Shown piece by piece: positions 31,580 through 56,259 of a stretch of DNA of 64,000 bases. The notes beneath the pieces are model-generated. The model searched no databases and had not been told where the DNA came from. It saw only the letters and a program-made list of their open reading frames with translations. The translations under genes and the position numbers were made by a program. Source of the stretch: a virus; the IMG/VR virus record IMGVR_UViG_3300025150_000003, positions 96,001 through 160,000 of that record. One strand, given 5' to 3'. Numbering within the stretch: position 1 is the stretch's first letter; the number at the start of each line of letters is the position of its first letter.

Positions 31580-34500
31580 TAGTTATCCTCCCCAGTGAGT
31601 TCCCCAACCCGTCGCTCGAACTCGGCACTAGCCGCCGAAAGAGCACTATCACTAGGCCCCGTGGAGTCGGTGAACGCATCGGCCAACTGCTTGACGATGA
31701 AGCTCCCTCCCCGGTCCATCACCTGCCCTCGAAGAGCCTGCTGCTGTTGCTGCCACCCGGAAGCGGCCTGTGCAGCCGTGTGAGCCACCCATCTGGACCC
31801 CTCATCCGCAGGGTCCTCACCCAGCCCCTCGTGCTGCGGAGAGCCTCCCTGTGAGAACTGGAGGAAGTCCTCTTGCCCGAAGGCCACCAGGTGGATGTCG
31901 GCCTCCGCTGCCTTGCAATCGCAAACGTGGCCAGCCTGCTGAAGATTCATGTCGGCGAGAGAGTAGGCCGCGTTGATGACTGGGATCTTCTGGATCCCAT
32001 CCAAGGTCTTGTCCGCGAAGATATTTGCCAACGAGAACTGAAGTTGGCTCGCGTCACCGTCACCCTTGAGCAAGAACCCATAGTCGAGGATCTGCTTGTC
32101 GGTGAGACCTCGGCCTCGAAGTTGAGAAATCAACTCATCGTTCAAATACTTGGCTGCTGCTGGACCCTCTAGTGTCACGGTCTCCGATACGGGTCCGGTC
32201 TTCTTCACCCCGGCCACCGTCTGAGTCTTGTAGCCTGGGACCTTGATCACTCCGTTGCCCTTGTTCTGCACGAAGAACTGGAGGATCATCTCCACCAGGG
32301 TCTTGTCGAGCATACTGAAGATGTCCAGCTTGTGGATCTGGTCGAAGACCCCGTCAGGTTCGATGCTCACCCCACGCCCGTAGCGGTAGTTGCCGATAAC
32401 CTCGTAGCCCGCTGCATCCGACACCGGGAACACCGGACTGAAACTCGTGTCCCGTGCTGTGTGCCGGACGATCTTCTTGACGGTGTTGCTGGCTGCCACC
32501 GCTACACCAAAAAGGCTACTGATCTGTCCATCGACTACAGCCTGCACAGGACCCCAATCCTCTTTCTTTCCCCCTGCTGCTTCGAAGGTTTTTAGGGATG
32601 ACCGTCGAAGCGACTCCATCCCATTGACGAAACTCTGAGCAAGTACCTCTGAGATCGTGGCGGACACCCCAACGAGGGTTGCCGTGGAACCCCCAGCCCC
32701 CAAAGTGATCCCACCGGTTTTCCCACCATAGTTCAGCGAACCGAAAGTTGCGTCCTTCGGGACCTGAGCTTTGTAGATCGTCACAGAGCTAGGGAAAGAC
32801 GGCATCGAACCAAAGGTGATAGGCTTGCCATTCAGTTGGTTGGAAGCCTGAAGTGCCATCACCTTTACGGCATCATTGATCTCCCCCGCCCAAGATGTCC
32901 AAAGAGGCCCAAAAATGCTTTCGATTGTGTCAGAGGGGGATGGGCTAGCCTGGATGAACAAACTGCTCACCTTGGAACGCACTGCCTTACCCAGGGTCCC
33001 GATGTTCGTGGTGGGGGCGTTGTTCACGCTCTGCTTGACGATGGTCACCGGCTGGACACTGAACATCAGCTCCAAGATGTCGCTGGTCGCCATCGACTGG
33101 CCCATCGGGAACTCCGAGTTGCTGTTGAGCACTCGAATGCCCTTCGTGGGCTTGCCCTTGACCAACTTTGCCTCCACCTTCACCGCCGAAGGATCATCCG
33201 AGTAGGGATCCTTGGCATACATCAGGATCTCGGGTGCTGTGCCATCCAAGTCCGCAGGGGGTCCATCCACCACCAGGGTCTTGCTACTCGTGTCATACTC
33301 CACCACCTTCGGACCCTGATGCTCCTCCTTGGGGTGCGAAGCGGAGTAGTAGCGGTAACTACCGGGTTGGCTGCCGTCCGAGAAGGTCGCTTTCTTGTCA
33401 GAGAGCATGTCCAGCAGATTGATGGTGCTGCTCAGGTCACCCCGTCCTGAAAAACTGGCGCTGGTCCGGTACTTGGCACCCACCTGGTTGAGCATGTCGA
33501 GCAAGAAGGCAACACCCTGCTGCTTGCCATCAGCGGGGTCCTTCCATCCCTCCTCCAGAGCCAGCCGTTTGCCGTTGATCTCGGCTGCCAGGTCGTCTAG
33601 GGCTGCTTCCTGAACCGCAATCTGCGCCGTCAGCTTTTCGATCTGTGTGATGGTCCCGGCCTTCTCCCTGTTTTGCCCGGAGGCCAACTCGGACCGGTGC
33701 GACTGCAACTGAAGAATCTGCCCCTGCAAATCCTGCAACGTTCGCTCAGAAGCCTTCCGAGCGTCCGCGCTCTGGCTGAGGAGAGTCCCGTAGTTACGGG
33801 CCTCCGCGACGATATTGAATGCTCGATCCAGGGGGATGTCGTTCGCCTTCAAGAACGGGTCAATCAGGTCCTTGGGTTTAGTCGCCTGACCCTCGAAATC
33901 ATCCATCTGGAAGAAGAACAGCACCTTGATCTGCTGAGAGCTATCCCCTCCCGTGCTGAACTTCGTGTTGAACACATAGACCGAGGTGCCACCCTCCCCG
34001 GTGTCCTGCTTCTGCACCAGCCCCATGGACTCCCCGATCTTGAGGATGTAGCGGATGACACGGAGGTCACTCAGGTCTTCCAGGTCACTGCCCACCACGA
34101 AGAACAAAGGGTTGATCTCCGTGGGGTCCAGAGCCATCACCACGTTCGGGAACCCGCTCAGCCGAGGATGATTCTCTTGGTCAAGGACCCGCAACGGGCG
34201 CTCGGGCAGGATGGTGTTGCCCAGGTCAATGTCCTCAATCCCGTTGGAGACACCATTGCCCACCCGACTCGCAGGATGCCCAGGGGCATAGAACTTCGCA
34301 CGCTTCCCCACGAGCTGGAGACTCGTCGTGCACTGGCCACCAACAGCGTGTGAATGTGCGAAGCTGTTGCAATAGTAGAAGCAGTCCAGATAGGGGATGT
34401 AGACGGGGAACCCTGGCCGCAGTTCAGGCCGGACAGGGATGGTCAGGGATGCCGTCTTGACGGCGATGTTCATCACGTCCATGCGGTTCACAGCCGCAAA

Positions 34501-36789
34501 GAACATCGACTTCGAGTCGTTGAAGTAGGCCGTCTCCAGAGAGCCAGGTCGCCAGCCGTACTGGGCCACCAGCTTGTAGTCGATGAACTGACCCCGCACC
34601 CCCCACTCGTTTTCTAGCCCGGTCCCACCAATGTTCTTGATCTGGCTCCCCTTGCAGGTCATGTAGGTGACCTGTGGTTCCTTCTCGATGAAGGAGATGT
34701 TGATGATGTCAATGTCCTCGATGCGGTAGACCCGAGACTTACTGGTGTCCAGGTTCCACATCGGCGGCTTGAACACGAAGTCCCCATCGACGTCCTGATA
34801 GAACTCGAACCCAGTGATACCCATCACCTTCTCGGCGACCTCCATCTTGGTCTCGTAGGAGGACTCGAAAAGGTTGACCTGACCCCAGTTGCCGATGTTC
34901 GAGACGAATGCCTGCATCTCGACGATGTTGATCTCGAACTTCGGGGTGTTGGTCTGTCCATCACCCTTGCTACGATCTCCAAAGGACGTGGCATCCCCGG
35001 CCTGCTTCTGGTCAGCCGAGAGCCTCTTGTATGTCAGATCGTCCTTAGCCTTCTTCGCCGCCTCCTTCGCCTTGCGGATAGACGCCGAGAAGAACCCCAC
35101 GGACTCAGCCTCGTTGGTGATCGGCAGGGTCGCCGACTCCTTGGGGTCATTGTAGCGACCGCGCATCAACCTCAGAATGTTCGCCGAAGATGTTCTGCTC
35201 AGCCAAGCCGCCGTCATCGTCGAGAACAAGTCCCCCGTGGCCCCGTGCATCCGCAACCGCGTGTGGTTGTTCGCGAACCTCCGCTCCCAGTACCGGATGT
35301 TCAGCGAGAACAGGGACTCACCCCCGACCTCGGTCACGGCCGCCTGATTGCTCTTGCCCGCCAGTGCCCAACCCACACCACCAGCCGCCCCCACCATGTC
35401 GTGGAACAGGGTGTACATGATGGCATAGGGGTGCATCCCCGTGAAGTTGTGGCCCACCAGGCTCATCTTGAGCTTCGAGTTGGTCGGCCGAGCACCGAAC
35501 ACCGAGGCGTTCGTGCTCATGTTATGGTACGCCCAGAAATGCAGCATCGACGAACAGTTGACCGAGACGGTGTTCACACCACCGGAGTAGCTGTGAGTCA
35601 CCTCCGTCACGACCCCATGAAACACGTGGTAGTACGGATAGGCCAGGGTGTTCTCGATACCAAGCCCTGCGAGTCCCATCTCACCCAGTAGGGAGGGGCC
35701 TGTCTGTGCAACATCGGCCGCGTTGACGTTGGCCGGAATGAAGCCAGGAGTGGCTTCCACCTGGACCTCCGCCACCTGAGACTTCACCTCCTGGGCCACC
35801 TGGGCGCTGAACCTCTTGTTCGCCCAACTGTCTCCGAACTGCTGCCCGCCCACGGCAGTGCGGTACTCCAGGTGTCTCCCTTTTGCATTACCAAGGGCTG
35901 ACAAGTAGAACCGAGAGTACATCTCCTTGGGGGAAATCCGGGTATCGCGGAACTTGCTCCCGTATCTTGCAGCCGCACTAGCAATCCGCGCAGAACAGAT
36001 GACGGGGTCCTGCCCATCGTAGTATCTGTCAGGGAACTTCGTGGCTATTTCATGGGAACCTGCAGCCCGGCCATCCATGAAATAGTCCACAGGGCAACCC
36101 AGGCCATTCGGGCAAGACAACTGGAACAGACCCGTTGCCCCACCTATAGACCCAGTCTCGTCTGAAGGCTTAGATTCGGCCGTCGCCGTCCAGTTACTCT
36201 CGAACTGAGCTTGGTTTACGGCCGCCAACCCGAAGGACGCCGGGAATCCGGCATCCGTCATGGTCTTGTAGATGATCTCGACGTTCTCCCGCTGCGAAGC
36301 GGACAAGGGCTTACCCTCAAACGTCAACCCATCAAAAAGGCGCTCAATCGTAGGGGGGATCGGCTTAACCAGAAGTGGATCCGTCCCAAAGCTAGCCTGA
36401 CTAGGGGACAGCGTAGAGCCGACGATCTCGTTGACCACCTTGGGCTCAGCCAGATGCTTGTAGAGCCCGGCCACGGGGAAGTAGCCCCGCATGTAGACGT
36501 GGACCTCCAGCCCCGGCCGGAGCAGGAACTTGGCATCACGAGCGAAAGAATCCGTGTGGTGCAGAGGGATGGACAGGGAGAAAGTTGCTGAGGCTCCGCC
36601 TGGTTCCGTCCCAGCATCCACCGAGACCTCGGTCAAGAACTGCTGGATGTCGATCTTGCCACTGCACTTCGAGCAACCGGGCAGCGCCGTGTCCCCGTTG
36701 AGATAGACCAAGGCATCGGGCGTGTGCTGAACCAGCTCACGACCATTGAGCTGCCAGGTGCCCACATAGGGACGGGATTCGATGCCCAC
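31579..36789 (-). CDS. Baseplate hub protein (gp27/gpD-like) with inserted lysozyme-like domain
   Basis: 1736 aa; VFHGVVTEVTHSYS, GFEFYQDVDGDFVFKPP and SLTIPVRPELRPGFPVYI are hub-type motifs; insert contains AAVNQAQFESNW...GATGLFQL. Confidence 0.75.
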   Translation of the reverse strand: MGIESRPYVGTWQLNGRELVQHTPDALVYLNGDTALPGCSKCSGKIDIQQFLTEVSVDAGTEPGGASATFSLSIPLHHTDSFARDAKFLLRPGLEVHVYMRGYFPVAGLYKHLAEPKVVNEIVGSTLSPSQASFGTDPLLVKPIPPTIERLFDGLTFEGKPLSASQRENVEIIYKTMTDAGFPASFGLAAVNQAQFESNWTATAESKPSDETGSIGGATGLFQLSCPNGLGCPVDYFMDGRAAGSHEIATKFPDRYYDGQDPVICSARIASAAARYGSKFRDTRISPKEMYSRFYLSALGNAKGRHLEYRTAVGGQQFGDSWANKRFSAQVAQEVKSQVAEVQVEATPGFIPANVNAADVAQTGPSLLGEMGLAGLGIENTLAYPYYHVFHGVVTEVTHSYSGGVNTVSVNCSSMLHFWAYHNMSTNASVFGARPTNSKLKMSLVGHNFTGMHPYAIMYTLFHDMVGAAGGVGWALAGKSNQAAVTEVGGESLFSLNIRYWERRFANNHTRLRMHGATGDLFSTMTAAWLSRTSSANILRLMRGRYNDPKESATLPITNEAESVGFFSASIRKAKEAAKKAKDDLTYKRLSADQKQAGDATSFGDRSKGDGQTNTPKFEINIVEMQAFVSNIGNWGQVNLFESSYETKMEVAEKVMGITGFEFYQDVDGDFVFKPPMWNLDTSKSRVYRIEDIDIINISFIEKEPQVTYMTCKGSQIKNIGGTGLENEWGVRGQFIDYKLVAQYGWRPGSLETAYFNDSKSMFFAAVNRMDVMNIAVKTASLTIPVRPELRPGFPVYIPYLDCFYYCNSFAHSHAVGGQCTTSLQLVGKRAKFYAPGHPASRVGNGVSNGIEDIDLGNTILPERPLRVLDQENHPRLSGFPNVVMALDPTEINPLFFVVGSDLEDLSDLRVIRYILKIGESMGLVQKQDTGEGGTSVYVFNTKFSTGGDSSQQIKVLFFFQMDDFEGQATKPKDLIDPFLKANDIPLDRAFNIVAEARNYGTLLSQSADARKASERTLQDLQGQILQLQSHRSELASGQNREKAGTITQIEKLTAQIAVQEAALDDLAAEINGKRLALEEGWKDPADGKQQGVAFLLDMLNQVGAKYRTSASFSGRGDLSSTINLLDMLSDKKATFSDGSQPGSYRYYSASHPKEEHQGPKVVEYDTSSKTLVVDGPPADLDGTAPEILMYAKDPYSDDPSAVKVEAKLVKGKPTKGIRVLNSNSEFPMGQSMATSDILELMFSVQPVTIVKQSVNNAPTTNIGTLGKAVRSKVSSLFIQASPSPSDTIESIFGPLWTSWAGEINDAVKVMALQASNQLNGKPITFGSMPSFPSSVTIYKAQVPKDATFGSLNYGGKTGGITLGAGGSTATLVGVSATISEVLAQSFVNGMESLRRSSLKTFEAAGGKKEDWGPVQAVVDGQISSLFGVAVAASNTVKKIVRHTARDTSFSPVFPVSDAAGYEVIGNYRYGRGVSIEPDGVFDQIHKLDIFSMLDKTLVEMILQFFVQNKGNGVIKVPGYKTQTVAGVKKTGPVSETVTLEGPAAAKYLNDELISQLRGRGLTDKQILDYGFLLKGDGDASQLQFSLANIFADKTLDGIQKIPVINAAYSLADMNLQQAGHVCDCKAAEADIHLVAFGQEDFLQFSQGGSPQHEGLGEDPADEGSRWVAHTAAQAASGWQQQQQALRGQVMDRGGSFIVKQLADAFTDSTGPSDSALSAASAEFERRVGELTGEDN

Positions 36790-45926: not shown

Positions 45927-46727
45927 ATGACTTTTACAAAACTGGTGGCCCTCAAAAGATGCACCCGATGCGGGGTTGAACAACCTGTCGGCGACTTCTT
46001 CTACCAGAGAAGACAGCACCGAAACATCTGTAAAGGATGCCAAGAAAAAGAGAACCTCTCCACTGAGACTTTCAAGTGCACCCGCTGTGAACTCTCGAAA
46101 CTAGCCCGAGAGTTCTATGTCTCTAGTGGGAAACGCCACTCCCAGTGTAAGAGCTGCGCCAAAACCTACCGAAAGCGATACAACAGGCGGACACCCAAAA
46201 CTTCGCCTGAAAAGAAATGCTCTCGGTGTCTTCAGGTTTTGGATTCATCGGCGTTCTACTCCAAGCGGGACGCCTCGGATGGACTCCAAACTCAGTGTAA
46301 AGAGTGTATGCTCAACGCCATGAAACGCTCCCGTGAGCGACCAGCCATCAAAACTGCTTGGGGATCTGTCTCTGTTGCCCGTGCCCAGAAACTGATGATC
46401 ACCCACCATCTCAGTTTCCCTGAAGTGGTAGACCTTCTGAGTGGGACCCACTGCCCCATATGTACACGCCCCTTCGGGGAAGGTTTTGGTGGTCAAGTTG
46501 ACCACAACCACATCACCGGCGAACTGCGAGGGCTTCTTTGCCTTCAATGTAACCTCCTGCTGGGAAATGCTAGAGACCAACCCGACATCCTGTTGGCCGC
46601 CCTCAACTATCTGGGGCACACCTCCGAATCCCCGCAGGTCCCTGAGACCGTCATACCAGCAACACCCCTGAAAAGGGTGTCCTCTCGACAAGAACCTTCC
46701 CGACGAAAAGTCTGGGAGGAGGTCTGA
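45927..46727 (+). CDS. Endonuclease VII-family (His-Me finger) protein with three N-terminal zinc-finger repeats; putative free-standing homing endonuclease
   Basis: CPIC...VDHNHITGELRGLLCLQCNLLLG...LLAALNYL is the Endonuclease_7 signature; three KxCxRC...FY...CKxC repeats precede it. Confidence 0.85.
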   Translation: MTFTKLVALKRCTRCGVEQPVGDFFYQRRQHRNICKGCQEKENLSTETFKCTRCELSKLAREFYVSSGKRHSQCKSCAKTYRKRYNRRTPKTSPEKKCSRCLQVLDSSAFYSKRDASDGLQTQCKECMLNAMKRSRERPAIKTAWGSVSVARAQKLMITHHLSFPEVVDLLSGTHCPICTRPFGEGFGGQVDHNHITGELRGLLCLQCNLLLGNARDQPDILLAALNYLGHTSESPQVPETVIPATPLKRVSSRQEPSRRKVWEEV

Positions 46728-46783: not shown

Positions 46784-47833
46784 ATGGCTGTCAACGCACG
46801 CACGTTCCAAGTTCTGAGCATCATCCGCGAGCGAGCACTTGCGGACCTGACCACGACCCAAGAGGACATTAGCGAGTTCATCGCTAACCACCGAAAGATC
46901 AGCCCCGTGAACTACAACAGGGCGTACATCTCCCCTTCCGCCCTGGCCAGCATCCTGGACCGGATGGCTGGACCTGACGACCTGCTTTCTCAGGGCACGA
47001 AAAATGAATTCTGGATGTCCCCCATGGGATCCCAGATGGCCGACCTCCTGGTGGACATCGACGGGTGCTCCAACCTGTTCATCGACAACTACAAGAAGAT
47101 GGTGTGCTACGCCGCCCTCCAGCAGCGCAGCCGTCTCGGGCAGGGGGCTGCCACCCCCAATGACATCGCGGACGCCACGGGGCTCTCCGGGGACTCCGTG
47201 CGACGGGGACTCTCGGACCTCGTGGTGGACCACCTGGTGGAGGAGGATCGGTCAGGACGCCCCAACCTCTACACCCTCCCCTCAGGAGCAGATGACGGCT
47301 CGACCCCGGAAAAGGCCCAGGTGTCCGAAGAGGACATCGAGGACGCCGCCAGGAAGGGCTACAACCTCGGGAAGAAGGTCGATGATGACCCCACCACCAA
47401 CATCATCGCGGAGACTCTCGCGGAAATCGCTGCTGGCGAAGACGAGTGCTGGGTCCCCACCAAGGATGCCCCTCTCCTGGCTCATGATCCACTGGACCAC
47501 CTGCCGAGGACTCTGAGCCAACTCCTCGAAAGCAACCCTCCGACAAACGCCTACGAGAGCTTCTGGGACCCGAAGCCCTTCGCCACGGTGGAGCAGCCCG
47601 CTGAGGAAACCGAGTTCGAGAAGCACCTTGACATTGCTGAGGAAACCGAGTTCGATACTTTCCCCACCCGTATCGGGGAAGCCTGGTTCGAGGTGCCCTT
47701 CGAGACGCGGGAAAGCCTGTACGCCCAGGCCACCGCCAGTGGCATGACTCTGCCGGATTTCCTCGACACTCTGGTGCACAGCCACGAGACGAAGATCCGT
47801 GAGGTCCTGTTCGGCGACTCGTTCTATTCCTGA
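46784..47833 (+). CDS. Winged helix-turn-helix DNA-binding protein with acidic C-terminus
   Basis: ATPNDIADATGLSGDSVRRGLSDLVVDHLVEEDRSGRPNLY (TrmB/MarR-like wHTH); AGGAG RBS. Confidence 0.7.
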   Translation: MAVNARTFQVLSIIRERALADLTTTQEDISEFIANHRKISPVNYNRAYISPSALASILDRMAGPDDLLSQGTKNEFWMSPMGSQMADLLVDIDGCSNLFIDNYKKMVCYAALQQRSRLGQGAATPNDIADATGLSGDSVRRGLSDLVVDHLVEEDRSGRPNLYTLPSGADDGSTPEKAQVSEEDIEDAARKGYNLGKKVDDDPTTNIIAETLAEIAAGEDECWVPTKDAPLLAHDPLDHLPRTLSQLLESNPPTNAYESFWDPKPFATVEQPAEETEFEKHLDIAEETEFDTFPTRIGEAWFEVPFETRESLYAQATASGMTLPDFLDTLVHSHETKIREVLFGDSFYS

Positions 47834-48021
47834 GAAATGGCATCAGCCTGGGGGACCAGCTCAAGGTCCTCCGGGCTGAGCGCCCAAGCTGTACCCAGAA
47901 CTGACACTTGCTCATCAGGCAACTCTTCCTCAGATGAGTCGGCCGAGGCAAGAGTCACTTCCTCGTAGTCGTTCATGATCCAGGTTCCTTGTCCGTAGAG
48001 GGACTGGTCCATTGTGATCAT
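47824..48021 (-). CDS. Small acidic hypothetical protein
   Basis: Follows the 48035 gene on the same strand; start uncertain (48021 or 48012). Confidence 0.4.
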   Translation of the reverse strand: MITMDQSLYGQGTWIMNDYEEVTLASADSSEEELPDEQVSVLGTAWALSPEDLELVPQADAISQE

Positions 48022-48034
48022 ACCCACCAGACGT

Positions 48035-48784
48035 CTAGCGCCCGTAGGCGCCACCCGTCTGCTGTTGCGGCTTACCATCCCACTTGTGAGCCGAAGAGAA
48101 ACTGTTCAGTCGCACATAGGCTCGACCCTGGTAATCCTGAACCTTCTTCCTCAGCGGGACCCCGATGAACTTGTTGACCATCGGCATCACATATTCGGTG
48201 GGCTCCCCACGACCGCGCACCAACTGCTTCTCGATCTCCCTGATGATGATCATCGAAGGCAAGGTTTTCACAACCTGATAGAAATCGACGTTGGTCTGGT
48301 CGTATCCCCACGACGAGACGAAAATGTCACCCACGATGACCGCCGAGGCCATCTTCACCACCCGTGGTCCCTTGGAACCTCCGAAGTGCTGGAACTCATA
48401 GGTCTCCACGAGACAGTCGCCATAGCGACCGAACCGGATGATCAACTTGGGTGTGTCGTAGGCCCCAACTCCCATCTGGTCGATCAGGGACGCACTCGGC
48501 ATCTCCATCTCTTCCTTGCCGACGACAACACCTGGTGTGTTGGCAGGCACCCGCACCGTCCGACCCTTCACCGTGTCGAGTGGGGTGTCCATCATCAGCA
48601 TGACCTTGTCACCCTTGCGGGGTGTCGTGCTGGCGAGGAACTTCGAGGCGAGATGATCGATCTTCCGAGCGATGCGATCGGGCACGAACTTGGTTGAGTT
48701 CAGCACAGCCAACAGAGGCTTCCGCAGCTCGGGCACCTGGGCAGCCAACTTCAAAAGTTCCTGACGCAGTGGGGTCGTGCTCAT
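48035..48784 (-). CDS. Modular hypothetical protein with N-terminal LRxxLxxLAxxxPELRxxLL helix
   Basis: ATG at 48784 with GGAG upstream; C-terminal VGDIFVSSWGYDQTNVDFYQVVK domain; preceded by the minus-strand motif. Confidence 0.75.
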   Translation of the reverse strand: MSTTPLRQELLKLAAQVPELRKPLLAVLNSTKFVPDRIARKIDHLASKFLASTTPRKGDKVMLMMDTPLDTVKGRTVRVPANTPGVVVGKEEMEMPSASLIDQMGVGAYDTPKLIIRFGRYGDCLVETYEFQHFGGSKGPRVVKMASAVIVGDIFVSSWGYDQTNVDFYQVVKTLPSMIIIREIEKQLVRGRGEPTEYVMPMVNKFIGVPLRKKVQDYQGRAYVRLNSFSSAHKWDGKPQQQTGGAYGR

Positions 48785-48847
48785 GTTGACTGTCTCCATC
48801 CGTAGCCACGGAACTCTACCTTTCCGGGATATTGGATAGAAAACGAG

Positions 48848-48877
48848 GGCTCAACTCTGTGAGACCACCCGTAGTAG
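48848..48877 (+). promoter_or_regulatory. Promoter-like motif GGCTCAACT-N13-CGTAGTAG, copy 1
   Basis: Exact match to the other three copies; ATG follows 5 nt downstream at 48883. Confidence 0.85.
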
Positions 48878-48882
48878 GTTTC

Positions 48883-49113
48883 ATGGAGAAGGATCACTAC
48901 ATCTCGGATCTTGCCCACATCATCACCGGGCTAGGAGCCCGTGAGGAGCGTGCGCTGGAAACCATCCGCACGATGGACCGGCAGCCCACCCTCATCGAGG
49001 ATGCTACACATGTAGCCCGACTGTATGCCCTGCGCAGTGTTCGATTTGAACTCGAAGAGATGAAAGCTGCCTGGGTCAACGACCACCCGAAGTTCAAGGT
49101 TCAGAATCTATGA
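48883..49113 (+). CDS. Hypothetical protein (76 aa), probably leaderless
   Basis: Start moved to ATG 48883 (MEKDHY), just after the promoter motif; ATGA overlap with the next gene. Confidence 0.65.
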   Translation: MEKDHYISDLAHIITGLGAREERALETIRTMDRQPTLIEDATHVARLYALRSVRFELEEMKAAWVNDHPKFKVQNL

Positions 49114-50201
49114 ATCACCTACCGGACTGCCCTTGTGGGGCAAACGACTGGCAGGGAGCCGGAGGGCACTACAGCCCCAACGGCCAATACTACGGTCGCA
49201 CCTGTGGCCGATGTGGGAAGGACCTCCACAACATCGGCCGTGATGGTTGGTGGCTCTTGTTCATCCACCCCACGACCCAGCGAGAGGTGCTAGAAGACTA
49301 CGCCAACACCTCCCTGGCCATCCAGGCCCGAGCCTATGCGGCCAAATGGAAGGCTGTGAACAAGGCGCATCAGAAGGTCCTGTTCGATGCCCTCTGCCGG
49401 GAATGGGGGCTGGCCCCCGAGAAGGGTGTGGAGTGGCATCCGCTGGAGACCAAGTACGACACGGGTCTCGGCTACGAGACCTGGGACTTCGACTACCTGG
49501 ACAACGAGGGCAACCGCCTCGATCTCGATGCTCATGCGTTCCGTGAGGCGTGCCACACCCTATGGGATGCCAACCCGGAGCACCCAAGCATGGTCCGGGC
49601 TCCTGACCCCATCAACGTGCCCGATGGCATCACCGCCTATGTGAGCCGTAACAAGATCTGGGATCTCGTCCCCCTACAGGCTGGCCTCCAGCCCATCCCC
49701 CTGGACCCCCTACGCCAAGGGTGGATCACCTACTGGGGGAGGGTCTGGAGTCTCCTGAAGGAAGCCACAGGCATCACTGTGGCCCCCGAGGAAGTACCCA
49801 ACGAGTACAGCAAGGATCCCACCAACGCGGAGCCTTGGTGGAAATTCACCATCGGTCGTGGTGAGTTTCTCGTTGGTCCCCGGCATCGTGTTGTCAACAT
49901 CGAAGTCTCGTCCGAGACTCCGTTCCCCACGGCCACCCTCCGTGCCCTGGCGGGCGCAGACAAGGTCACCTTCACGGCTCAGCGCCCCTGGGAGCAAGAG
50001 CTGGAGGAGCGACTCACGAAGCTCCCGCCCGCTCGTGGTGATGGGTTCAAGGCCTGGGAAGAGACGATCACTCGTCTTGCTGCCGAGGCTGCCGAGGCCA
50101 ACCAGGATGCTGCCGATGAGTCCACCAAGATGGTGATCCACGCCTACAGCCAGGCTAAGGTCGTGGAGTACCTCACCCTCGCCATTCAAAGCGTGAGCTG
50201 A
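49110..50201 (+). CDS. Hypothetical protein with N-terminal zinc ribbon (363 aa)
   Basis: CPCG...TCGRCG; coupled to both neighbours. Confidence 0.75.
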   Translation: MNHLPDCPCGANDWQGAGGHYSPNGQYYGRTCGRCGKDLHNIGRDGWWLLFIHPTTQREVLEDYANTSLAIQARAYAAKWKAVNKAHQKVLFDALCREWGLAPEKGVEWHPLETKYDTGLGYETWDFDYLDNEGNRLDLDAHAFREACHTLWDANPEHPSMVRAPDPINVPDGITAYVSRNKIWDLVPLQAGLQPIPLDPLRQGWITYWGRVWSLLKEATGITVAPEEVPNEYSKDPTNAEPWWKFTIGRGEFLVGPRHRVVNIEVSSETPFPTATLRALAGADKVTFTAQRPWEQELEERLTKLPPARGDGFKAWEETITRLAAEAAEANQDAADESTKMVIHAYSQAKVVEYLTLAIQSVS

Positions 50202-51235
50202 TGCCCCCGAGGAAGACCAAGGAGCAGGCTGAGACCAAGCCCACCATCGCCTGGATGACCGGGGCATACGCAGGCTCCGGCGGGTTCCTCCAGCAATGCA
50301 CGGACAAGGTTGTGACCAGGATCAACCATCACGGTGACTACCCCGATCAAGATGGCACGTTCATCGTCACAGACCGGCTCAACGTGTTCCAAGCCTATCC
50401 CATGCTCAACGTCATCTCTGGCGAGAACATGGAGATGTGGCTCACCAAGCAGGAGGTCGAGCAGTACCGGGGCACCCGAGCAGACGACTGGACAGAACCT
50501 CACCCTCGGACTTTTGACCTGGCCACCATTGGCCTTGTCACCCCAACCAAGACAAGGCCAGCACTTCAAGGCTGGGCTGGGTCCTCCATGTATCGGATCG
50601 TTCAAGACAAAGGGGGCCACTGGTGGTACGGGGATGTCACGATACCCCACAAGTTGGCCTACTGGCACCGCTTCAAAGGCAAGAGGGGGACGGATCTTAG
50701 ACTTCCCGAACTACGTTTCCTGTACCCGCACCTGACCTACATGGGGCCGGATTCGGATCATGTCACCGTCTCCCCGTGGGGGGAGAAGAGTCGATCAGAT
50801 CGACTCCTCATCGCGACGTATGAGGTACAGCGCCTTGTGGAGTCACTCAGGATGACGGGGGTCTATTACCCACAAGGGAACGCCCGTTGGAATGTGGAAA
50901 TCGCCGAGAAGGAGTGCAGAACCCTCCGCGACAGTTTGATGGTCAACCTCATTGACAAAGAGGACTCAGCCTCAAAGCTCCTTGAGCACGCTCAGAAGGA
51001 AGCTGAGACTGCCCAAAACGCAGCCCATGAAGCCAAAATGAGGGCAACTCGTCTCGAAGGTGAGTTGAAAGAGCTGCGAGCGATCCCACCTACCGAACGG
51101 GATGCTATCCTCTCCCGCCTTTCCAAGGAAAGGGACGATGCCCTCGAACGTGCCTTGTGGGCAGAAAAAGCCCTAGAGACGGCTCGGGAATGCAACACGG
51201 GCTGGGATTGGAGTCGGGTGCTCGACGAGGACTAG
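50201..51235 (+). CDS. Hypothetical protein with C-terminal coiled coil (344 aa)
   Basis: TGATG overlap with the upstream gene; heptad-rich C-terminus. Confidence 0.75.
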   Translation: MPPRKTKEQAETKPTIAWMTGAYAGSGGFLQQCTDKVVTRINHHGDYPDQDGTFIVTDRLNVFQAYPMLNVISGENMEMWLTKQEVEQYRGTRADDWTEPHPRTFDLATIGLVTPTKTRPALQGWAGSSMYRIVQDKGGHWWYGDVTIPHKLAYWHRFKGKRGTDLRLPELRFLYPHLTYMGPDSDHVTVSPWGEKSRSDRLLIATYEVQRLVESLRMTGVYYPQGNARWNVEIAEKECRTLRDSLMVNLIDKEDSASKLLEHAQKEAETAQNAAHEAKMRATRLEGELKELRAIPPTERDAILSRLSKERDDALERALWAEKALETARECNTGWDWSRVLDED

Positions 51236-51807
51236 AACTTCAAGTCTATCCCAAGCCTGTTACCATTGCGAGCATGAGGCACCGCACAGCACTTCCCGAC
51301 AATCATCGGGGTGGTGATGCCAACCAGGGCCAGCCGAACGTCTGGGTCGTTGCACAGGAACCCATTCTCGCTGACCACGAGGTCCTCGTTGAGGTTGTAG
51401 GTGATGAACCCACCCGTACCATCCCTCAACCCACCAGGGCCAATGGCCACCGTCTCGAAGATACGGAACAAGAATCGACCACCACCAGCCGTGATGGTGA
51501 CGGTAGAGGCCCCTGCACGAGAGCCCTGCTCTGTTCGGAGCTGAACCCCAGTGTAGTTGTTCACCGGACCCGAGAAGGAGCCAGGGTCATAGTCTTCAGA
51601 AGGGAAGGCCAAGAACCCCGTGGCGCTGTTTCCATCGGAGGCTTCCACAACGTACTCATCCACCATGTTCGGTGGTGGGATGTACTTGACCCAGATCCCT
51701 CCCTGCCAGCCTTGGGCACGGAGATTGGGGCCGGCGGTCGCGGGGAACTTATCCCCGTTGATGACCAGAACCACGTCGTCGGTCAGGTTGGTTGTTTGCT
51801 CAGCCAC
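51232..51807 (-). CDS. Hypothetical protein, possibly virion/head-associated (191 aa)
   Basis: GAGGTG RBS; Gly-rich with beta-strand-like sequence; preceded by the same motif as the structural genes. Confidence 0.65.
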   Translation of the reverse strand: MAEQTTNLTDDVVLVINGDKFPATAGPNLRAQGWQGGIWVKYIPPPNMVDEYVVEASDGNSATGFLAFPSEDYDPGSFSGPVNNYTGVQLRTEQGSRAGASTVTITAGGGRFLFRIFETVAIGPGGLRDGTGGFITYNLNEDLVVSENGFLCNDPDVRLALVGITTPMIVGKCCAVPHARNGNRLGIDLKF

Positions 51808-51856
51808 ATCTCACCTCTACCCGAGTAGGGCCAAAGGCAGAAAACCGAACTGAGGG

Positions 51857-51886
51857 GGCTCAACTTGGCGTAGCCATCCGTAGTAG
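51857..51886 (+). promoter_or_regulatory. Promoter-like motif GGCTCAACT-N13-CGTAGTAG, copy 2
   Basis: Exact match; GGAG at 51905-51908 and ATG at 51912. Confidence 0.85.
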
Positions 51887-51911
51887 GTGTGTACAAGGCA
51901 CCACGGAGAAC

Positions 51912-52166
51912 ATGATGTTGAAGGACATGATCGAGTTCAAACGAGAGCAGAACGTCCGCATCGACACTGGGGACGTGGTGTTCGATGGCAAGATCCGAGC
52001 CGTCATCTCGATGAACCGGAAGAACACCAGTGACGAGGATCGCCTCTGTCACAACTACATCGTCGTGAACTACAACGACGGTGAGGTGGACACCGTTGCA
52101 CGTTTCTACCAGCGCCGGTCTGGACACATCTTCAACTCACGAGGCTGGACGCTGGAAGCCGAGTAG
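51912..52166 (+). CDS. Small SH3/KOW-like hypothetical protein
   Basis: Start moved to 51912 (GGAG RBS); FKREQNVRID...GKIRAV...YIVV pattern. Confidence 0.65.
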   Translation: MMLKDMIEFKREQNVRIDTGDVVFDGKIRAVISMNRKNTSDEDRLCHNYIVVNYNDGEVDTVARFYQRRSGHIFNSRGWTLEAE

Positions 52167-52169
52167 TAG

Positions 52170-52199
52170 GGCTCAACTCTGACCAGCCAAGCGTAGTAG
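52170..52199 (+). promoter_or_regulatory. Promoter-like motif GGCTCAACT-N13-CGTAGTAG, copy 3
   Basis: Exact match; ATG follows 4 nt downstream at 52204. Confidence 0.85.
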
Positions 52200-52203
52200 G
52201 TAC

Positions 52204-52458
52204 ATGAAGATCCGACTCACATTCAAGACCCCGGACATCCTGCTCGACACCGCCGAGCAGTACCTCGACAACCCCGAATTCCAGCGCTGGCTCCTTCATG
52301 AGGAGTGGGCCAACCCGGGAGACAAGGATCGCCAGATGCGAGACGCCGCCGAAGATGCTCTGACGGAGAAACTTCAGGGCATCGTCCGTTCAGGTGAGTA
52401 CCTCACCATCGAAGTCGATCTGGACACCAAGACCGCCACCGTCGTGAAGGGAGAGTAA
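52204..52458 (+). CDS. Hypothetical protein (84 aa), probably leaderless
   Basis: MKIRLTFKTPD...GEYLTIEVDLDTKTATV; immediately after the promoter motif. Confidence 0.75.
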   Translation: MKIRLTFKTPDILLDTAEQYLDNPEFQRWLLHEEWANPGDKDRQMRDAAEDALTEKLQGIVRSGEYLTIEVDLDTKTATVVKGE

Positions 52459-52460
52459 CC

Positions 52461-53165
52461 GTGACTGTTCTGACCGCCATCATCGCCATCATCGCCATCC
52501 TGGGGATGGTGATGACCGTACAACTGTCCCGCAAGTACCGGGTCAATGCCGCTGCGTTCACGGCCCAGATCCAGAAGCTCGTGATGGCCAACAGCATCGA
52601 CAGGGCCATCAGGCTCTGCAACGCCGTACAGGAGGCCCCCCTGCCTTCTGCGGTGAAAAGCCTCCTCGTCCGGTCCAACCGCCCCCACGAGCTTCCGCTC
52701 TACTACGAGCAGGAATACGAGGGGCTGACCCAGAAGGCATCCGAGATCAACAACTACAAGGGATGGCATGGCATGGCCGCCTTGGTGGGGAACCTACTTC
52801 TCGTGGGCATCCTCTACTTCGCGACACCTGAGGCTGACAAGGGGGGCACCACGACCTGGCTGGTGGTCTACCTCTCGGCTTCCATCCTCCTCTCAGGCCT
52901 ACTGACCAGCCTCCACCACCACCTGAAGGGGTCGCGGGTGTACCTCCACAAGGTGTACATCATGCTGCTGAACCGCCAGAGCTACACCCCCAAGAGCCAC
53001 GAAGTCCGCCACCTCACTCGACAGGAGATCGAGGCCTGGCAGGCCTCCATGGATGCCTTCAACGCGGACTACAGCACCCGCAAAGCGTCTGGAGCGCCCG
53101 TGGAGAAGGTGGAAGACGAGTACAAGGCCAACGCTGATGACCGTGGCGTCCTCCCGCCCCTCTGA
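52461..53165 (+). CDS. Degenerate MotA/TolQ/ExbB-like three-TM membrane protein
   Basis: TM1, then KYRVNAAAFTAQIQKLVMANSIDRAIRLCNAVQEAPLPSAVKSLLVRSNR, then two more hydrophobic segments. The loop resembles myxobacterial TolQ/ExbB homologues as I recall them. Confidence 0.65.
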   Translation: MTVLTAIIAIIAILGMVMTVQLSRKYRVNAAAFTAQIQKLVMANSIDRAIRLCNAVQEAPLPSAVKSLLVRSNRPHELPLYYEQEYEGLTQKASEINNYKGWHGMAALVGNLLLVGILYFATPEADKGGTTTWLVVYLSASILLSGLLTSLHHHLKGSRVYLHKVYIMLLNRQSYTPKSHEVRHLTRQEIEAWQASMDAFNADYSTRKASGAPVEKVEDEYKANADDRGVLPPL

Positions 53166-53176
53166 ACCAGAAAGAA

Positions 53177-53554
53177 ATGCAGACAAAACTTGAAACAGTA
53201 GAACAGATGCGTACCAGAGCACGGGCAAGCAACCAATCCTGGATGGATTTCGCCGCTTCAATCCATGATGTGGGCTATGCTCTATATCCTCTGGGCAAAG
53301 ACACACTGACCTGGCTGGAACAAGCACGTCCCATCAGGGACGAAACCTGCCCACTCGAACTACGAAAGGCCGTACTACATACCGGGCGGCAAACCTCTCT
53401 CTTCGGAGAAGACATCTACATCGTGGATGGACGGGCCGACCACGTCATCTGGATGAGACACCAAACCTGCAACACCAGTGCCCTACTTCACCGTGGTGAT
53501 GGGCTATATTGTGCCACCTGCCACGCAAGTGTTTCCCAGCAAGAGACCATATAA
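53177..53554 (+). CDS. Hypothetical protein with C-terminal Cys/His cluster (125 aa)
   Basis: HQTC...YCATCH; co-oriented within the cluster. Confidence 0.6.
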   Translation: MQTKLETVEQMRTRARASNQSWMDFAASIHDVGYALYPLGKDTLTWLEQARPIRDETCPLELRKAVLHTGRQTSLFGEDIYIVDGRADHVIWMRHQTCNTSALLHRGDGLYCATCHASVSQQETI

Positions 53555-53585
53555 TCATCTGATTCTCAATCACAGGAGACCACGG

Positions 53586-53900
53586 ATGCCTGTCACACTC
53601 CATTCACCCGAGCAGAAGCCTCCGGTTTACGAGATTGAGGTCGTGGGGGCAGCGGAACTGCTTTCCAGAGCCCAGATCGAAGACCTGAGTCGGAGACTCG
53701 GAGAGTTCCTGGGGATTCCCGATGCCACCCTGCTCTCCCCACAAGCCCGAGCCTATCTTGATGCCCTTATGGATGTCGTCCACCAAGAAGCCGAAGAAGT
53801 CGCCTGGCTCGGCAAACGACGATTCGACTCTGATGCCGTCGCCTACCACGCCAGGAGACTCATCAAACACCTGGACGCTGAAACCAAGAAAAGAGAGTAG
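53586..53900 (+). CDS. Hypothetical protein (104 aa)
   Basis: Start moved to ATG 53586, which has AGGAG upstream. Confidence 0.6.
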   Translation: MPVTLHSPEQKPPVYEIEVVGAAELLSRAQIEDLSRRLGEFLGIPDATLLSPQARAYLDALMDVVHQEAEEVAWLGKRRFDSDAVAYHARRLIKHLDAETKKRE

Positions 53901-53912
53901 TCAATCGGTGTA

Positions 53913-54067
53913 CCACATCATACGTGGATTCATCAGAATCCGTTCAGTGCTACCTGCCTGTTCAGTGTTTTGTGACCCCCGCCATTTCATTGGTCAGAGG
54001 CAGGTTTTGACCCTAGTGCGGAGAGAGCCCACCATCTGGCCCGACTACTGAACAACTTTGGTAGCGC
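53913..54067. ncRNA. Candidate structured RNA with two alternative folds
   Basis: Intergenic; three 8-bp helices (53947-54/54060-67, 53959-66/54047-54, 53952-59/53998-54005) plus smaller hairpins. Confidence 0.45.
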
Positions 54068-54071
54068 CAAA

Positions 54072-54101
54072 GGCTCAACTTCCTGAGCCCACCCGTAGTA
54101 G
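54072..54101 (+). promoter_or_regulatory. Promoter-like motif GGCTCAACT-N13-CGTAGTAG, copy 4
   Basis: Exact match; upstream of the gene starting at 54179. Confidence 0.85.
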
Positions 54102-54178
54102 AGTCAGGTGAGTCCTGGTGAACTGGTAGCCAGGGGCAAGGTTCCGCCAACAACGTGATGAACAAGCAGGAGAGTAAG

Positions 54179-54442
54179 ATGGACAAACTAGCCCAAATCA
54201 TTGCAGAGCACCCCACCAAGCGATGGAGGGCTCATACAGGGTTCGTCACCCCGGTGATGTTGCGTGCGGTCTTTGAAGAAGCCAAGACGCGGGACATCAT
54301 CACGGTGGCAGAGGTGCAGGAGATGCCCGACTTCATTGGCACCCTGTTCCTCGCACGCACCACCTGCAAATGGCTGGAGCGGATGGGATTGCTCCGTGAG
54401 AAGAGCGCTTGTAGTGGCAGGTTCAGCCTCGTGAAAGACTAG
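54179..54442 (+). CDS. Small hypothetical protein, possibly winged helix
   Basis: AGGAG RBS before ATG 54179; WLERMGLLREK...GRFSL resembles a wHTH wing. Confidence 0.6.
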   Translation: MDKLAQIIAEHPTKRWRAHTGFVTPVMLRAVFEEAKTRDIITVAEVQEMPDFIGTLFLARTTCKWLERMGLLREKSACSGRFSLVKD

Positions 54443-54458
54443 CCATCAGCACCAAAGC

Positions 54459-54499
54459 AAAGAGGCCCCCGAACGTCTGCTCGGGGGCCTCTTTCTTTT
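54459..54499. terminator. Bidirectional intrinsic terminator
   Basis: aaagaggcccccga (54459-72) / tcgggggcctcttt (54481-94) perfect inverted repeat with T-rich tail, between convergent genes. Confidence 0.85.
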
Positions 54500-54713
54500 C
54501 TAGGACTTCGGGGTCACCCGGCTGATCAAGGTCAGGCCCTCCTCTGGCAACCAGTGCAGGTGGTCCACCTGCACGTAACGGGGGTGCTGCCACAAGTAGT
54601 TCTCACACAGGTACTCAAACCCACCATCCGTCCTGAAACGGGATTCAAGCACTCGATAGTGGAGGGTGCTCTGCCTGCTGAACAGTGTCATTACGCTGAA
54701 ACTTCGGTTTCAT
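54500..54713 (-). pseudogene. Small SH3-like protein gene split by a frameshift
   Basis: ATG 54713 gives MKPKFQRNDTVQQAEH.. and stops at 54645; the +1 frame continues LHYRVLESRFRTDGGFEYLCE...WLPEEGLTL to 54500. Confidence 0.45.
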
Positions 54714-54846
54714 CTTTCAATCCTGGTTACGGTGTCTTCACCATGAGAGTTTCCGGCTCTCGTCGGAGAGTCGTGCGAGGCCGACTCTCCTGGCTCAATA
54801 GTCCCGCAACAAGGTGTCGTTGACACCACTTTGACAAAAAACGTCA

Positions 54847-56259
54847 CTAGGCAGAAACCCGTACCAGCGTGTCCCCCAACCACAACCCACCCGGCTTGAC
54901 TGCCAACACGCCCAGCTCGACCAGACAGCCCTGCAAGTAGGACACGTCCGTGTAGGGCTCGTCCTCCCGCACTTCAAGGTAGATGAGGTCCGGTGCAGAC
55001 TGGATCATCTCCCGCTTGATGCGGTCCCGTTCGATGAGCTTGTCCCACTCAGCACGGTAAGACTCGTCCACCATCCAGGGGTTGGGGAAGGTGTAGTGGA
55101 ACATCCCCTGAAACTCGACGACCAACCCAACGTCAGGGAAGTAGCCGTCAAACCGGAAGCGATGCCCCGTTGGTGGGTTGGTGAACCGCCAGCTCTTCCA
55201 TTCCTCCTCAAAATGCCGCCCGTCTAAAGCCTCCGAAACGGCATCCAAGCAACGCCTCTGAGAGACGTTCCCATGTGCCCAGATCAACCCTAGACGACGA
55301 CATTCCTTCTTGATGGTGATGTTGCTGTACCCCAACCCAGACATCGCCGCCGCAATGCTCACCTTCCCATTCTTCAGCTTGAACTTTTCCAGTTCCTCCA
55401 CCGTGAGGACTACCCGTCGGTCATCGGCCGCCTGCTCGATGTACTTGGGCGTTGCTCTCAGCCCCCACAACTCCAAGTAGGTCTTGAGCGTAGGCCACGC
55501 AACACCCAAACCTGGCATTGCCCTCCGGTGATCTACCGTCCCATCAGGCTCCAAGAAAGGCGTGAAATCCTCTTGGGTCAAACCAAGGGTCTTGGCTTCT
55601 CGGATTTTCTCTCCGAAATCGGGCGGACGAATCAGCCCCTGCAAAGCACTCTTGTCCCTCACAGGACAGTCCAAGGCGACCACCAACGCCTCAGGGTGAC
55701 GCTCCCGATACCCTGAGTGCTCATGCTGTAGGTGACTGGTCAGGTTCTCCGCACGGTAGCCACACTCCAGGCAACGGATGAAGTCCTTCGACTCCTTCTT
55801 GCCCTTCCACCGTGCAACCTCCAGGAGGTTCGCCGTGGAAGCCTTGCATTCCGGGCAAGGAACGACCGAGGAGAGCTTGTGCACCTCGTGCTCCCTCCCA
55901 CAAGAGGGGCACACGATGCTCTTGGTGCCATCGTAAGCATCGGAGGCCACCCGACCCTGTTGGATGGCCTCCCGTCGCTTCTCCGTGACCTTAGAGGGGC
56001 GAATGAGGGCATCCTGGTGCTTGACCCGATAGGCGTCCGCTGTGATGCCGTGGGATGCCTTCAGGTGACGAGCAAGAGTTGCCGCTCGATGCCCGCACTC
56101 AAGGCAACAGACGTAATCCTCACCCTCAACTTTCCCATTCCAACGCTGGTCCTCTTGCCACTCCAAATACTCCGGGTGGGAAGCTGCCTGGTGGCGGAAG
56201 TGAGATGCCAACCCCCGAAGGTTGGCTACCTTGATAGAACAGATGGGGCACAAAACCAC
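54847..56259 (-). CDS. Multi-zinc-finger protein with C-terminal PD-(D/E)XK (Vsr/DUF559-like) nuclease; putative free-standing homing endonuclease
   Basis: One C2H2 finger, two Ros/MucR-like DYVxCLECG..LxxHL fingers, a C4 ribbon, two helical repeats, then RFDGYFPDVGLVVEFQGMFHY...DRIKRE. Confidence 0.8.
   Translation of the reverse strand: MVLCPICSIKVANLRGLASHFRHQAASHPEYLEWQEDQRWNGKVEGEDYVCCLECGHRAATLARHLKASHGITADAYRVKHQDALIRPSKVTEKRREAIQQGRVASDAYDGTKSIVCPSCGREHEVHKLSSVVPCPECKASTANLLEVARWKGKKESKDFIRCLECGYRAENLTSHLQHEHSGYRERHPEALVVALDCPVRDKSALQGLIRPPDFGEKIREAKTLGLTQEDFTPFLEPDGTVDHRRAMPGLGVAWPTLKTYLELWGLRATPKYIEQAADDRRVVLTVEELEKFKLKNGKVSIAAAMSGLGYSNITIKKECRRLGLIWAHGNVSQRRCLDAVSEALDGRHFEEEWKSWRFTNPPTGHRFRFDGYFPDVGLVVEFQGMFHYTFPNPWMVDESYRAEWDKLIERDRIKREMIQSAPDLIYLEVREDEPYTDVSYLQGCLVELGVLAVKPGGLWLGDTLVRVSA

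Follow-up and report, generated by a model that had tools for sequence, protein, structure and literature searches.

What reads a signal that recurs, almost letter for letter, between the genes of an uncultured phage, and which genes does it serve? This question is raised by a 64,000-nucleotide stretch of viral DNA, the window hereafter, which comprises bases 96001-160000 of a 169,413-bp linear IMG/VR record (IMGVR_UViG_3300025150_000003, termed G000; 60% G+C). Positions given below are those of the window unless they are said to be record positions. In an initial annotation, four copies of a bipartite motif, GGCTCAACT-N13-CGTAGTAG, were interpreted as the promoter for a phage-encoded or unusual host sigma factor or RNA polymerase (RNAP) driving early host-takeover cassettes, and possibly as recombination points for the shuffling of these cassettes. 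We find that the best explanation as a whole, to which we give a probability of roughly 0.78, is that the motif is the promoter of the phage's non-structural transcription class, and that it is probably read by a phage specificity factor.

The four copies are where they had been placed, at 48848-48877, 51857-51886, 52170-52199 and 54072-54101, all on the + strand, and a pattern search of the window found them to be perfect, with 0 mismatches over the 17 specified bases; 0.09 copies were expected by chance, and four were reached in 0 of 100 shuffles. A scan of the whole record, which had been suggested as a check, revealed a family far larger than four, namely, 16 perfect copies, 14 with one mismatch, four with two and two with three, and the reversed pattern gave 0 copies over the same sequence. 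Scanning with a weight matrix yielded 36 sites at 28.8-53.1 bits plus one at 23.9 bits, or 37 in all; nothing further reached 12 bits in the record, and Markov nulls gave 0. The distance between boxes is equally strict, with 31 occurrences of GGCTCA-N16-CGTAGTAG in the record and 0 for each of the spacings N12-N15 and N17-N20. The motif class is sharply bounded and its spacing is absolute.

Extended beyond the original pattern, the consensus reads R-G-GGCTCAA-c-T-y, followed by seven unconserved positions (10-16 of the motif), c-y-C-n-T-S and CGTAGTAG-G-g-g-Y-R. The 12-13 nt spacer is weakly C-rich toward its 3' end, G is favored at motif positions 30-33, and a pyrimidine at position 34 and a purine at position 35 are each found in 35 of 36 sites. 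Within the AAC of the upstream box, A6 is present in 36/36 sites, A7 in 35/36 and C8 in 24/36. A text search of the literature for both boxes returned primers and unrelated sequences only.

The placement of the sites fits a promoter. With genes called by a codon-usage model, 33 of the 37 sites lie outside confident genes, the first confident downstream gene is co-oriented with the site in 34, and this gene starts within 50 nt in 25. The intergenic position and co-orientation originally noted for four copies thus hold for most sites of the record. Five back-to-back pairs stand exactly at divergent gene junctions (record positions 6210/6260, 20632/20714, 59757/59799, 78825/78869 and 166771/166813). 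The structural blocks for tail and baseplate, at 82.8-141.8 kb and 150.8-163.3 kb of the record, have zero sites, and the site-bearing regions hold genes for DNA replication and nucleotide metabolism. Two sites precede strongly folding RNAs (z = -2.9 and -3.9) instead of open reading frames (ORFs), and therefore the signal is transcriptional and not translational. Sigma-70-like promoters are scarce: none was found between 44 and 56.5 kb of the window, against 3.5 expected, and only one site with at least 10/12 matches exists in the whole 169 kb. Taken together, the tightness, placement and orientation of the motif, its paired copies, the sites heading RNAs and the scarcity of sigma-70-like promoters make it very likely, as judged from the sequence, that the motif is a promoter.

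The record is a fragment of a very large phage, since CheckV estimates its completeness at 32%, and its source is a huge, uncultured myovirus from an aquifer, the myovirus marks being a 1785-aa sheath protein (phrog_2839) and a baseplate wedge protein (phrog_6). The virion block encodes giant proteins of 3714, 2181, 2075 and 1736 aa outside any known family, and the other regions of the record, where the sites lie, code for DNA polymerase A, a DnaB-type helicase, a primase zinc ribbon, ThyX, thymidine kinase and PhoH, together with an RNA ligase and a hybrid sensor kinase. Against this background, the promoter class would cover non-structural genes, presumably early and middle ones: operons in the replication and nucleotide-metabolism regions, many small genes of no assigned function and at least two structured RNAs, with the tail and baseplate modules left out. 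The proposed restriction to early host-takeover cassettes is too narrow, as the same signal also precedes operons in the replication and nucleotide-metabolism regions, and two structured RNA genes. For this uncultured clade of huge phages the motif offers a ready map of transcription units, in which early and middle genes are split from virion genes and small accessory genes and non-coding RNAs stand out as genuine units with expression of their own.

How would such a promoter work? Transcription would start 1-5 nt past the last G of the motif, so that genes whose ATG lies 4-5 nt past it would give messages with a zero or near-zero leader, as had been supposed for the first and third copies of the window. 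A rigid reader with two contact sites would touch the two boxes from a single face of the DNA. As reader we favor a factor of the phage that works together with the core RNA polymerase of the host, because ~290 kb of non-overlapping sequence (G000 and the sister fragment G001) contains no detectable polymerase, because the motif-bearing regions hold typical delayed-early functions, and because the boxes drift between lineages. Most likely this factor would be a very divergent sigma or a sigma-appropriation pair. Its gene could be located in the two-thirds of the genome that are not sequenced, or could have diverged beyond the reach of profile searches.

The drift just mentioned became apparent in sister fragments gathered from IMG/VR by the motif pattern and by the sheath protein. 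The same form as in G000 is found in G001, G004 and G014. The form of G006 (sheath 71% identical) and G013 is GGCTCAGAA/C ... (C/A)GTAGTAG, and that of G007, G008 and G009 is GGCTCAR-N15-RGTRGTRG (sheath 73% identical). Sister lineages have GGCTCAGAA, GGCTCAGAC or GGCTCAGGT in place of AAC, with GGCTCA retained, and the core shared throughout the clade is GGCTCA-N17-GTnGTnG. The sister searches demanded this shared core, hence the only independent evidence is a synteny-based case: at the orthologous junction beside a conserved 249-aa gene, the two boxes are retained in G007 and in G013, with unrelated spacers and different downstream genes. Lineage-specific drift of the boxes provides a natural co-variation test for any candidate reader.

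Farther away the signal is absent. The nearest GenBank records by sheath are LR745208.1 (an unannotated, complete 'uncultured phage' of 485 kb; 42% identity) and Tunturi_5, a 309-kb phage of Tunturiibacter, of the Acidobacteriota (31% identity; PMC11924767). In both of these distant relatives the motif is absent, with matches at the level of controls. When one genome per species was scanned for a host regulon, no contig with two copies was found among 185,579 prokaryote species, and the 79 scattered single matches compare with ~139 expected by our estimate; a host regulon is thus not apparent. The fragment G001 (IMGVR_UViG_3300025150_000006, 105 kb) has the promoter form and G+C content of G000 and zero DNA in common with it. 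Its genes include those for a terminase, helicases, a ribonucleotide reductase and an SbcC-like protein, and it probably stems from elsewhere in the same genome or from a sister genome.

Several observations weigh against the promoter-plus-phage-factor reading, beginning with the start site, which fits two registers. With +1 at motif position 35, which is suggested by the Y34-R35 step and by six or seven ORFs that start exactly at position 35 or 36, CGTAGT occupies -12 to -7 and the distal box -35 to -26. With +1 at position 30/31, the proximal block abuts the start; this register is supported by two RNAs: the tRNA-like one that follows the site at record position 39702 has a perfect 7-bp acceptor-like terminal stem starting at position 31, and the one behind the site at record position 5319 has a helix that starts at position 34. 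The sequence CAGAAC, common to ~10 sites at positions 34-40, could account for the Y-R step without a start there. In neither register does the downstream box have an A at -11, and we know of no sigma-70-family -10 element that lacks it in this way. Moreover, the 22 public sequencing runs that hold the stretch, from aquifer, groundwater and hot-spring samples, are all DNA and none RNA.

The search for the reader adds to these points. The identification of a sigma factor or RNAP gene had been proposed as a check, and none was detected in the ~600 kb of clade fragments. Specifically, the sigma profiles for regions 2, 4 and 4_2 (PF04542, PF04545 and PF08281) and TIGR02937 are absent from G000, as are the T7-type polymerase (PF00940), beta (PF00562) and beta' (PF00623) profiles. 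Sigma region 2, beta' and T7-type, the only three for which LR745208.1 was checked, are missing from it and from the sister fragments, and MotA (PF09158) and AsiA (PF09010) from seven clade records. Enzymes that have diverged strongly, or genes in the two-thirds of the genome that are missing, would escape these profile searches, and for PF00940 the control genomes cannot give a positive; Tunturi_5 does have one sigma gene. It is quite possible that a polymerase or sigma gene lies in the missing part. What stands of the original proposal is a dispersed, co-oriented, intergenic and promoter-like regulon that is not of the sigma-70 type; a matching sigma or RNAP gene is the part for which no counterpart was identified.

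Other routes to the reader gave the same outcome. A sequence search of three giant proteins against the PDB, PHROG scans of 24 large proteins and Pfam scans of 88 mid-size proteins found no reader, and no DxDGD or HGxKG catalytic signature was seen in ORFs of at least 150 aa of G000, G001 and G014, apart from a lone DVDGD in the 1736-aa protein. The only PF04542 hit (E = 0.009) was discarded, as it overlaps an RNA gene and holds a stop codon. The DVDGD was not retained as a polymerase loop either: it is probably there by chance, and homologues of its protein include amidase or lysozyme forms. More than 500 homologues of this 1736-aa virion-block protein (31579-36789, - strand) occur on contigs of huge phages, the longest being 536 kb, with 45-65% identity over 700 aa; amidase_2, phage lysozyme or SLT domains are present in some of them. 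From these likenesses, it is probably a conserved tail-associated protein that degrades the cell wall.

Two more candidates were set aside. The 349-aa protein at 46784-47833 (+ strand), conserved in the clade and adjoining the island described below, has an AlphaFold model with tandem winged-helix domains (residues 1-80 and 100-165), a disordered linker of ~130 aa and C-terminal helices. Its best fold matches are MarR/BpsR, ScpB, TrmBL2 and winged-helix subunits of RNA polymerase III (E ~3e-3), and the model makes it a possible DNA-binding regulator; as a reader of the motif it offered weak atlas leads and no tie to the motif. The 173-aa protein encoded behind the sole sigma-70-like promoter has a confident model (pLDDT 83.5) with a long helical hairpin and a small sheet, and no sigma-like match.

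How does the promoter class compare with known ones? Phage-private promoter classes are a well-known strategy, and in kind our finding is ordinary. Phage sigma factors read, for instance, the SPO1 gp28 middle promoters, AGGAGA-N17/18-TTTNTTT, and the phiEco32 gp36 promoters. Like these, the motif is a two-box consensus private to the phage that stands before one temporal class of genes and is absent from another; unlike these, it comes with no recognizable sigma gene in ~600 kb, its consensus is unrelated, and its downstream box may abut the start. T4 middle promoters combine a MotA box centered at -30 with a -10 element, under sigma appropriation by MotA/AsiA. If +1 is position 35, the motif resembles them, as its 10-bp box would be centered near -31, 13 bp upstream of the proximal box, and it would likewise drive delayed-early genes; the proximal box, however, is CGTAGT and not TAnnnT, and no MotA/AsiA occurs in the seven clade records. 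Membership in the promoters of group 1 sigma-70 finds no support, since with CGTAGTAG as proximal box neither register gives an A at -11 plus a T at -7.

Among the alternatives, the one that we would place first, while still holding it to be unlikely, goes beyond the phage specificity factor. It assumes a new class of promoter-specificity factor or polymerase, without detectable relation to sigma-70-family factors, MotA/AsiA, T7-type and two-barrel enzymes, which would read GGCTCA-N17-GTnGTnG, the proximal box abutting the start, for the whole non-structural programme, the repeats serving as cassette exchange points in the tail module. With no known reader type in ~600 kb of clade sequence, either a very divergent sigma or such a new factor could emerge.

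Next, and also unlikely, is an RNA polymerase of the phage's own, packaged in the virion or made early, that starts at the G of position 30/31. To our knowledge, every known phage whose earliest promoters do not look like those of its host brings its own polymerase, as do N4, phiKZ and the crAss-like phages, and host-type promoters are nearly absent from G000. In this register the conserved block cyCnTSCGTAGTA would abut +1 and be followed by GGG, as in promoters of single-subunit polymerases, and T7-type promoters would be matched by a 14-nt conserved block next to the start and by G-rich initial bases; the stem of the tRNA-like RNA and the G-rich positions 30-33 agree with it, and there is room for such an enzyme among the giant virion proteins outside known families, with about one-third of the genome in hand. 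However, T7-type promoters comprise some 17-23 contiguous conserved bases up to +1, with PF00940 as the cognate enzyme, whereas here positions 10-16, a gap of 7 nt, are unconserved, an extra distal box lies at -31 to -22, and none of the polymerase profiles or signatures listed above was found. The two-barrel enzymes fare no better, PF00623 and PF00562 being absent from G000, PF00623 from its relatives and LR745208.1, and DxDGD from the ORFs of at least 150 aa.

N4 virion-RNAP promoters have a stem of 5-7 bp and a 3-nt loop at a fixed position. A hairpin promoter of this kind was considered and rejected, as the hairpin tendency of our spacers is weak (4 bp), its position is not fixed, and the mean DNA folding energy is -3.6 kcal/mol, compared with -3.0 in shuffles. 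The underlying AGCC, complementary to GGCT of the upstream box, occurs at variable positions in 8/36 spacers, where 2.1 are expected and 1 of 1000 shuffles reaches eight.

Could the motif be no promoter at all, but an oriented protein-binding site, a recombination site or an RNA-level element in intergenic DNA? Cluster A mycobacteriophages have stoperators, single 13-bp sites for a repressor, which are likewise asymmetric, numerous, intergenic and oriented with transcription; the copies studied here flank variable cassettes, and their start sites are predicted ones. Unlike stoperators, however, the motif is made of two boxes at a strictly fixed distance, lies at a short fixed distance from start codons and from the 5' helices of RNAs, and forms back-to-back pairs exactly where divergent promoters are needed and no other promoter-like signal is present. 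Furthermore, contigs of four aquifer runs show no joint of two copies. We consider this explanation highly improbable.

Least probable of all is that the phage borrows a host alternative sigma factor, of the extracytoplasmic function (ECF) type, whose consensus equals the motif. Two hallmarks of ECF promoters are indeed shared (PMC5758882): CGTA, which sigma-W of B. subtilis (TGAAAC ... CGTA) uses as its selective -10 element, opens the downstream box, and AAC, usually the core of an ECF -35 element, lies upstream. In addition, the spacing is rigid and no phage sigma was found. However, the 14 nt between AAC and CGT, correctly stated at the outset and identical at every site, contrast with the usual 16-17, AAC is lost or shifted in sisters (GGCTCAGAA, GGCTCAGAC) that keep GGCTCA, and the downstream box is longer, with 8-9 conserved bases. 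No ECF sigma gene was found in the third or so of the genome available, no two-copy contig turned up among the prokaryote species, and replication genes under a normally sequestered stress sigma would be unusual. The suggested likeness to ECF promoters does not hold.

We return to the window with the promoter of the non-structural class as the preferred reading. Its four copies would head four small transcription units, which form a hypervariable accessory island set between conserved tail genes. The features of this island are the following.

48035..48784, - strand: conserved 249-aa gene, not motif-driven, a conserved marker for the left edge of the variable island.
48848..48877, + strand: putative promoter copy 1, start predicted at 48878-48883; the copy stands back to back with the region upstream of the 249-aa gene on the - strand.
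48883..49113, + strand: 76-aa ORF, first gene of unit 1, with its ATG 5 nt past copy 1; its message would be leaderless or have a 5-nt leader.
49110-50201 and 50201-51235, + strand: two further ORFs of unit 1, of 363 and 344 aa, with overlapping stops and no function assigned.
51232..51807, - strand: conserved 191-aa gene between units 1 and 2.
51857..51886, + strand: putative promoter copy 2, which stands back to back with the region upstream of the 191-aa gene on the - strand; kept in G014.
51912..52166, + strand: 84-aa ORF with a GGAGA ribosome site, 25 nt past copy 2; its stop is 3 nt short of copy 3.
52170..52199, + strand: putative promoter copy 3, a perfect match to the motif.
52204-52458, + strand: 84-aa ORF with its ATG 4 nt past copy 3, no function assigned.
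52461-53165, + strand: 234-aa ORF after the 84-aa ORF of copy 3, no function assigned.
54072..54101, + strand: putative promoter copy 4, followed by a leader of ~73 nt.
54179..54442, + strand: 87-aa ORF with a GGAGAG ribosome site, the final gene of the island.
54459..54494, + strand: strong hairpin resembling an intrinsic terminator, 14 pairs and then a T run, which ends the + strand island before the convergent tail genes.

These positions agree with the earlier description of an ATG soon after two of the copies (48883 and 52204) and of genes led by GGAG-type ribosome sites after the other two (ATGs at 51912 and 54179). The 76-aa ORF has a weak homologue in G007 (32% identity) and no match to Pfam or PHROG families, and the 249-aa protein has zero atlas matches. 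Ahead of the ribosome site, the leader after copy 4 (54102-54178) contains a CCTGG...CCAGG hairpin and may, from this sequence, be a regulatory leader.

The island is variable as a block. Its 48.85-54.8 kb are largely unrelated or missing in G006, G007, G013 and G014, where the flanks, namely, 44.1-48.8 kb, the 191-aa gene and the sheath gene, are conserved; a megablast search of the island against GenBank phages found nothing. Unit 1, that is, the first promoter copy with its three ORFs (2.4 kb), is entirely missing from G014. Cassette shuffling at the repeats would fit the hypervariability of the island and the different genes that follow the orthologous first copy, but contigs of four aquifer runs over 48000-55000 contain no joint linking two promoter copies. 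Loose contig ends on both sides of copy 2 correspond to other genomic copies of the motif. On this sequence evidence, shuffling at the repeats is plausible.

A precedent is found in T4-type phages, whose hyperplastic regions contain PeSLs, sigma-70-like promoters fused to a terminator stem-loop (PMC2839356, PMC4122927). As with these elements, the four copies at 48.85-54.8 kb are repeated promoter units that flank small genes of no assigned function in a hypervariable island between conserved core flanks, and relatives differ by gain or loss of entire promoter-plus-gene units. As for junctions of the kind left by PeSL insertions and deletions or mini-circles, the orthologous copy 1 precedes different genes in G007 and G013, and unit 1 is lacking in G014; neither mini-circles nor recombination at the repeats were seen. 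Unlike PeSLs, the motif is not sigma-70-like and has no regular stem-loop partner, and the single strong terminator of the island (54459-54494) adjoins no promoter copy.

Some further observations concern the island and its surroundings. Contigs of two other aquifer runs, 90-95% identical, lack 322 bp of the 249-aa gene at 48027-48350 and have six other letters at the joint, which makes this a strain-level deletion variant. Among the tail genes, a 266-aa HNH/endonuclease VII protein (45927-46727, + strand; phrog_2633, E = 4e-33) is likewise variable among relatives, and is probably a free-standing homing endonuclease, because it is missing at the matching place in G014. Upstream of the 249-aa and 191-aa genes we noticed GTTTTCT-N17-GGTAGAG, at 48815-48844 and 51816-51846 (both on the - strand), with similar sequence at orthologous places in G007 and G014; as a second, 'late' motif class it was rejected, since just two copies in the 169-kb record is the level expected by chance.

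In the record as a whole, GGGTAGA (11/19 copies intergenic) and GTAGGAT show an intergenic enrichment of ~4-fold, are often located 4-40 nt upstream of start codons and have the GTAG core in common with the main motif; they may represent a second, looser promoter class. The sole strong sigma-70-like promoter, TTGACA-N16-TATGGT in the region 1959-2108 of the record, is followed by an 11-codon mini-ORF (MMTRNARIHFF) and the conserved gene for the 173-aa protein, a layout that looks like leader-peptide control. Finally, ARAGORN detected one tRNA only in the record, at record positions 14461-14550 (+ strand), whose CTA anticodon would read the UAG stop.

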